From Escherichia coli (lineage in GTDB: Bacteria > Pseudomonadota > Gammaproteobacteria > Enterobacterales > Enterobacteriaceae), in NCBI RefSeq assembly GCF_044324785.1, contig NZ_CP172127.1: a DNA stretch of 64,000 nucleotides; one strand, given 5' to 3'. Each line of letters starts with the position of its first letter. Within the stretch, counting starts at the first letter, position 1. This document shows positions 52,851-52,887 of the stretch, piece by piece. The position numbers and the translations under genes were made by a program. The notes under the pieces are model-generated. The model did no database searches. It saw only the letters and a program-made list of their open reading frames with translations, and was not told the DNA's origin.

Positions 52851-52887
52851 GATTGTAGAGGCATGTTCTGATGACGCCTCTACAATC
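52851..52887 (+). terminator. Perfect 12-bp stem hairpin between yhiL and yhiJ
   Basis: gattgtagaggc-N13-gcctctacaatc followed by ttt; terminator or attenuator-like. Confidence 0.45.

Follow-up and report, generated by a model that had tools for sequence, protein, structure and literature searches.

We analyzed a stretch of 64,000 nt from Escherichia coli (contig NZ_CP172127.1 of assembly GCF_044324785.1; hereafter, the window), in which a hairpin at 52851-52887 lies between the paralogous genes yhiL and yhiJ. We propose that this hairpin is a weak intrinsic terminator or the 3'-end hairpin of the yhiL mRNA, probably a leaky one, and we give this reading a probability of roughly 40%. According to the proposal, the inverted repeat would be transcribed within the 3' untranslated region (UTR) of yhiL, and the RNA would form a stem-loop of 12 bp, to which an outer helix of 7 bp may add, with the tail UUUAGGGACUUUCUCU behind it. 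The stem-loop would then act as a weak, leaky Rho-independent terminator and/or block 3' exonucleases, and in this way set the 3' end of the yhiL mRNA, and the yhiJ promoter about 46 nt downstream would be partly insulated from read-through. We infer the function of the hairpin, as well as the stopping of RNA polymerase or the ending of RNA at this site, from its anatomy.

An earlier note on this DNA, made from the letters of the sequence, had described a perfect 12-bp inverted repeat here, and its coordinates and sequence proved exact both on reading the sequence and with a repeat finder. The left arm GATTGTAGAGGC (52851-52862, + strand) and the right arm GCCTCTACAATC (52876-52887, + strand) are 12 nt each, 100% complementary and 13 nt apart, and the whole element in the window reads cgATTGTAGAGGC-ATGTTCTGATGAC-GCCTCTACAATCttt. 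The 12-mer of the arm has no further copy in the window with one mismatch allowed. As + strand RNA, a 70-nt segment folds at −24.0 kcal/mol (z = −5.26; 0 of 200 shuffles equal or better), which bears out the strong hairpin of the earlier note. The core stem has 12 perfect pairs, six of them G-C, with −18.3 kcal/mol for the core and −24.0 kcal/mol for the extended structure. The − strand RNA also folds, at −21.2 kcal/mol (z = −5.48), as does the DNA hairpin, at −11.3 kcal/mol (z = −5.84). When the context was enlarged to 191 nt, both the minimum free energy (MFE) structure and the centroid were still dominated by the hairpin.

Around the core, an outer helix is predicted by the MFE structure, the centroid and the RNAalifold consensus, in which UUCUUAA (52842-52848, +) would pair with UUAGGGA (52889-52895, +). 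This predicted helix includes two G.U pairs, and one of its pairs is broken in the N96/L011 lineage. In some haplotypes only, the loop is shortened to 5 nt by three inner pairs (GUU/GAC), which are not conserved. The pyrimidine- and U-rich tail UUUAGGGACUUUCUCU occupies 52888-52903 (+) and is a candidate weak U-tract by a TransTermHP-type tail score. RNAalifold also predicted a second, imperfect hairpin right past the yhiL stop (52794-52836), whose A>G changes stay G.U-paired. We rejected this second candidate: it is weak in the window (z = −1.4), reaches z = −3.6 in M7638, and is absent in L011 (z = −0.4).

To judge the repeat against chance, we used composition-preserving block shuffles, which gave an expectation of 0.12 perfect inverted repeats per 64 kb with arms of 12 bp or more and loops of 3-20 nt. 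The window holds about nine distinct repeats of this kind, and several of the others have A/T-run ends, in line with the classical terminator type. The hairpin is well beyond chance, yet it is one of a class common in the window.

The hairpin lies on the yhiL strand, starting 64 nt past the yhiL stop codon and ending 161 nt ahead of the yhiJ ATG. A constitutive RpoD promoter for yhiJ, printed as TTGACG-19-TATAAT, was reported in the yhiL-yhiJ spacer by genomic SELEX (systematic evolution of ligands by exponential enrichment) with RpoD (Shimada et al., PMC3946193). We infer that this published promoter corresponds to the block TTAAGG-19-CATAAT at 52934-52964 (+), about 46 nt downstream of the hairpin; its counterpart in the K-12 spacer is TTGAGG-19-TATAAT. 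Conservation of the promoter block and the adjacent ATAAGAAAnTTCATATTATG extends to E. albertii. Being upstream of the yhiJ promoter, the hairpin would be part of the yhiL 3' UTR and not of the yhiJ leader, and the attenuator that the earlier note had offered as one of three options is therefore unlikely. A terminator decoupling the paralogs, another of the three, is the best anatomical fit among them, since the hairpin is on the coding strand and upstream of a separate promoter, although it is not canonical in loop, tail or terminator scan.

Several side observations concern this promoter region. In the window, the hexamers TTAAGG and CATAAT are each one step further off consensus than TTGAGG and TATAAT of K-12. 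Between the hairpin and the promoter block, ATAAGAAA(T/A)TTCATATTATG (52917-52931) is invariant as far as E. albertii (L008) despite the diverged surrounding spacer, and each of its strands has a −10-like hexamer, TATTAT on + and CATAAT on −, the latter called by the consensus scan. This stretch may serve as another promoter of yhiJ, or drive antisense transcription into the hairpin. Further, PSS-15 (L004, about 3190-3900) and L37 (L021) carry an IS1 insertion about 50 nt past the hairpin, and the aligned junction of PSS-15 places IS1 at the inferred −35 of the yhiJ promoter.

Like E. coli Rho-independent terminators, the element is a stable coding-strand stem-loop soon past a stop codon, followed by U residues. 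Its 12-bp stem, 13-nt loop and total of 37 nt are all inside the structural limits of TransTermHP (a stem of 4 or more, a loop of 3-13 and a total of up to 59; PMC12207403), with the loop at the upper limit. With the tail formula of TransTermHP, taken from PMC12207403, we obtained −3.60 for the + strand tail UUUAGGGACUUUCUC past the core stem, and 3.2% of window positions, or 4.9% in the AT-rich island, score as well or better. The + strand tail past the extended stem scores −3.06, and the − strand tail −2.01. By these measures the hairpin appears to be at the weak edge of accepted intrinsic terminators, on the + strand only. A d'Aubenton-Carafa-style d-score was also tried, and was replaced by the tail score, as it was uncalibrated and known terminators with U-runs inside their arms were also negative.

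Several observations weigh against a terminator. The consensus terminator scan does not call the hairpin, because its loop is longer than 8 nt and there are fewer than five T in the eight bases past the core stem. The median loop of mapped terminators is 4 nt in every species (PMC12207403), compared with 13 nt here, which is outside the typical 3-8 nt. For terminators mapped by Term-seq, the median tails of non-Streptomyces species are about −4.7 to −5.5 and the third quartile of E. coli is −3.8/−3.9 (PMC12207403); the tail at −3.60 is weaker than this third quartile. The U-tract consists of UUU, then AGGGAC, then CUUUCUCU. Unlike E. coli Rho-independent terminators, the hairpin thus combines its 13-nt loop with three U only, without an upstream A-tract, and the base of its stem is A/U-rich. 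In the searched supplements of the Adams 2021 Term-seq paper (PMC7815308), there is no 3'-end entry for yhiL, yhiJ or yhiK. In addition, ciprofloxacin mildly induces both yhiL and yhiJ at late times (PMC11002266), and this joint late induction is compatible with read-through, while separate regulation would look alike.

The main rival of the terminator reading draws on the comparison of strains. The repeat may be a functionless quasi-palindrome, produced by chance or by template switching in an AT-rich, horizontally acquired, H-NS-silenced island, that looks conserved only through the recent divergence of E. coli lineages; we find this doubtful. The 82-nt hairpin region is found in 4170 of 5426 complete E. 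coli genomes, at one place per genome and always on the chromosome, and 2451 genomes are at least 99% identical to the window across the 82 nt. To look at variation we picked 23 sequences across the identity range, which gave 14 haplotypes. Variable sites number 3 of 24 in the arms, 5 of 13 in the loop ATGTTCTGATGAC (52863-52875, +; 13 nt), which is the most variable part, and 8 of 45 in the flanks within the 82 nt. Neither the comparison of arms with flanks (p = 0.74) nor that of arms with loop (p = 0.10) gives a statistical sign of selection on the stem. An early signal of lower variation in the arms than in the loop (1/24 vs 5/13, p = 0.014; 13 sequences) was lost after eight more genomes were added.

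Among the sampled haplotypes, no pair has changes on both sides, that is, no compensatory change. The left arm carries the E. coli variants 52861 G>A and 52862 C>T, and the sole variant seen in the right arm is 52880 C>T. With 52862 C>T and 52880 C>T, pairing is kept as G.U in + strand RNA only. The variant 52861 G>A, which is segregating, breaks a pair and brings the core down to −12.8 kcal/mol. O111 has a second change, 52875 C>T beside the stem, which adds two pairs and makes up for the lost stability, from −16.4 to −19.6 kcal/mol. The two G.U-compatible substitutions and this second change count in favour of the terminator reading. All changes in loop and arms but one are C>T or G>A. In nine full-length loci, the diversity (π) of the arms is about 0.02, lower than that of yhiJ third positions (0.097) and of the whole yhiL (0.074); as it concerns 24 sites only, this lower arm diversity is suggestive at best.

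A neutral palindrome would agree with arms that are no more conserved than their flanks and lack compensatory changes, and with the segregation of a stem-weakening variant. It is less easily reconciled with the expectation of only 0.12 such perfect repeats in 64 kb, or with the finding that all 14 haplotypes form a stable hairpin, at −12.8 to −19.6 kcal/mol. The tendency of the loop to vary more than the arms also speaks against it, and the position and strand asymmetry of the element suit a 3'-UTR element.

We then turned to more divergent loci, which were obtained via protein matches and their encoding contigs; scans of representative genomes for outgroups with a YhiJ peptide pattern and a promoter-block DNA pattern gave no matches. 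In the lineage of N96 and L011/L012, whose YhiJ is 87% identical, the stem is kept with one G.U pair, and the tail past the extended stem, UUUUGUCU, is more U-rich and scores −4.65. In E. albertii, YhiJ is 57% identical and the spacer is 356 bp long. There, one can still recognise the flanks CTTAATCGAT...TTAGG and the promoter block, and the segment between them has diverged. This spacer, with its homologous flanks, contains no significant hairpin (z = −1.0), which counts against the terminator reading, and a hairpin missing where the promoter block is conserved agrees with a neutral palindrome.

A deletion of about 1.1 kb is seen in L010 (GCA_910664965.1, 3760-3850), running from about codon 255 of yhiL to the 3' edge of the hairpin, so that its endpoint coincides with the palindrome. 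The hairpin is gone from this locus, and the promoter block and an intact yhiJ are retained. The hairpin is thus dispensable for keeping yhiJ intact, and it travels with yhiL. As the promoter is kept as well, yhiJ does not need the hairpin. The loss of the hairpin with yhiJ intact, like the almost neutral evolution of yhiL and its decay to a pseudogene in several sampled strains, is what a neutral palindrome would lead one to expect.

The region around the hairpin is otherwise unmarked. No annotated feature lies over the 82 nt in complete E. coli genomes, a phage search returned no counterpart of the hairpin region, and an Rfam scan of 50500-55500 gave chance-level matches only (E at least 1.9, far below gathering), none of them on the hairpin. 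An origin from a mobile element was rejected, as the three 'plasmid' matches were mislabelled chromosomes of 4.8-4.9 Mb and there was no phage match. Like the repetitive extragenic palindromes (REP) and bacterial interspersed mosaic elements (BIME), the element is an intergenic hairpin that could stabilise upstream mRNA. It differs from them in being single-copy, at one place in each of 4170 genomes, and no dispersed family has sequence in common with it. As a side observation, the 401 nt at 52700-53100 of the window reach no more than 98.3% identity with any of the listed E. coli genomes, and one unlisted genome reaches at least 99%.

AT-rich, H-NS-bound genes are typical targets of Rho. An alternative that we regard as unlikely is that Rho stops transcription further downstream and that 3'-5' exonucleases trim the yhiL RNA back to the hairpin, which would serve as a protective 3' stem-loop. 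Rho-dependent transcripts end just past stable stem-loops without U-rich tails, with a bias of C over G downstream (Dar & Sorek 2018, PMC6061677). The yhiL element is similar in being a stable 3'-UTR stem-loop, and its poor U-tract would fit, although the tail is intermediate, with three U, then purines, then CUUUCUCU. The locus is AT-rich, and H-NS binding has been reported in the spacer (PMC3946193). Unlike in the published cases (PMC6061677), G exceeds C downstream of the hairpin: 52888-52987 has 13 C and 18 G, the opposite of the expected bias. GC skew is positive across the whole of 52800-53100 (+0.11 to +0.19), and the yhiJ promoter follows the hairpin after only about 46 nt.

Hairpins processed by RNase III between cistrons are found, for example, in phage T7 early mRNA and in rpsO-pnp. 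It is highly improbable, in our view, that the yhiL-yhiJ hairpin works in this manner, as a helix of about 19-22 bp in a yhiL-yhiJ co-transcript that is cut by RNase III or modulates read-through, uncoupling the stability of the two cistrons. The extended structure of 7 + 12 (+3) bp with a small internal loop resembles such hairpins in being a long interrupted helix between two cistrons, the consensus scan found no canonical terminator between the genes, and the late induction of yhiL and yhiJ is similar. Even so, the case is structural speculation only, and the helix is shorter than those of the known processing hairpins and partly G.U-paired. Two of the pairs in its outer part are G.U, and one lineage has this part partly disrupted; its three inner pairs are not conserved, and yhiJ has a promoter of its own.

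The third option of the earlier note was a protein-binding palindrome. A dimeric regulator might bind the two 12-bp half-sites and control the yhiJ promoter or organise H-NS silencing, and we consider this quite unlikely. In its favour, the repeat is perfectly symmetric, it precedes the yhiJ promoter and is centred at about −100 from the inferred transcription start site, the loop, or spacer, varies more than the arms, and H-NS has been reported in the yhiL-yhiJ spacer (PMC3946193). Against it, 25 bp, or about 2.4 helical turns, lie between the centres of the half-sites, which would therefore be on different faces of the DNA. The repeat matches neither the LexA box nor another known motif. With a 12-mer unique in the window and a region present once per genome, there is no apparent regulon. 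The promoter block is conserved to E. albertii and the palindrome is not, and the changes in the arms break the symmetry of the DNA. Put more broadly, a role at the level of DNA, either as an operator for a regulator of the yhiJ promoter or as a self-maintaining quasi-palindrome in which template switching keeps the arms and an extruded loop mutates faster, seems to us very unlikely.

Regarding LexA, the box CTGT-N8-ACAG has no match in the yhiL-yhiJ spacer. We rejected the hairpin as a LexA/SOS box on this ground; the only nearby LexA-like site is upstream of yhiL. This site, CTGTTGTTTTTTACAA at 50993-51008 in the divergent yhiM-yhiL spacer, has the LexA core CTGT-N8-ACAG with one mismatch. 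Both yhiL and yhiJ have been listed among possible SOS genes (PMC11002266 among the sources), and 50993-51008 is probably the 'potential SOS box' behind this listing.

Three other candidates at the hairpin were discarded. An open reading frame (ORF) of 26 aa on the − strand over the hairpin (ATG 52866-52864) has no start codon left in haplotypes with 52862 C>T, and one of 13 aa on the + strand (ATG 52871) loses its ATG in N96/L011. A likeness of the tail TTAGGGAC... to the 'GAD box' of GadE needs an indel and covers about 12 of 19-20 positions by eye, and was set aside.

The flanking genes fit the description of paralogs given in the earlier note. The yhiL-like gene (51180-52787, +), with DUF6860 and DUF4049, and the downstream paralog yhiJ (53049-54671, +), with DUF4049, were placed from the ORF list, Pfam and the RefSeq annotation (for yhiL, that of homologous loci), and their proteins are 35% identical over 375 aa (E = 2e-74). 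The yhiL-like ORF as listed begins at TTG 51096; its first ATG, at 51180, is the true start. RefSeq names the homologous genes YhiJ/YhiL family protein and yhiJ, with yhiM as the neighbor on one side and yhiY-yhiI on the other. The label 'metallophosphoesterase-like' held up less well, as the Pfam Metallophos match is below cutoff (E = 0.0086), although motifs of the GDxDG, GDxxDR and GNHE type are present in the alignment. There is also a weak match to the domain model NF043030 of Legionella Wip, a Dot/Icm type IV secretion system effector, and a sequence search for solved structures returned no match. All YhiJ/YhiL homologues with a source name come from Escherichia or Shigella.

The two genes form an island of 33-39% G+C between flanks of 46% and 56-60% G+C, and H-NS binding has been reported from genomic SELEX for each of the two spacers flanking yhiL (PMC3946193). 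The diversity of yhiJ at codon positions 1/2/3 (π = 0.045/0.030/0.097) indicates purifying selection. For yhiL, π at the three codon positions is about 0.082/0.055/0.084, which is almost neutral, and its most diverse stretch is the final 300 nt (π up to 0.19). The gene is a frameshifted or stopped pseudogene in K-12, 120899, PSS-15, AST217 and others. A 555-aa E. coli protein (P0004) combines DUF6860 with DUF4049, and over 76% of its length it has 84% identity to YhiJ. It looks like a YhiL-YhiJ fusion, and if it is one, a deletion would have taken out the spacer together with the hairpin.

Other repeats were noticed elsewhere in the window. A perfect 12-bp inverted repeat, AAAACCAGCGTT...AACGCTGGTTTT (49693-49728), lies between the convergent yhiN-like gene (48228-49430, +) and yhiM (49745-50896, −), and resembles a terminator that works in both directions. 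An inverted repeat in the yhiL-yhiN region has been noted previously (PMC6604978). Two terminator hairpins that are nearly identical, AAAAAACCGAC...GTCGGTTTTTT, occur at 37435-37461 and 37669-37695, 234 nt apart, with a LexA-like box, CTGTATGATTATCCAG (37815-37830), just downstream of the pair. We take the region 37435-37830 to resemble agrA/agrB/dinQ.

The hairpin is unannotated, and it is of an ordinary kind, with nothing unusual about it. Its significance is small, as it is one of about nine comparable repeats in the window and its features fall inside known classes of 3'-UTR stem-loops. At most, it would mark a transcript boundary between two H-NS-silenced, Escherichia-restricted DUF4049 paralogs, which are metallophosphatase-like and poorly understood. 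If the proposed reading is true, yhiL and yhiJ would be separate transcription units, which would be useful for operon annotation and for the study of their late SOS-associated induction.
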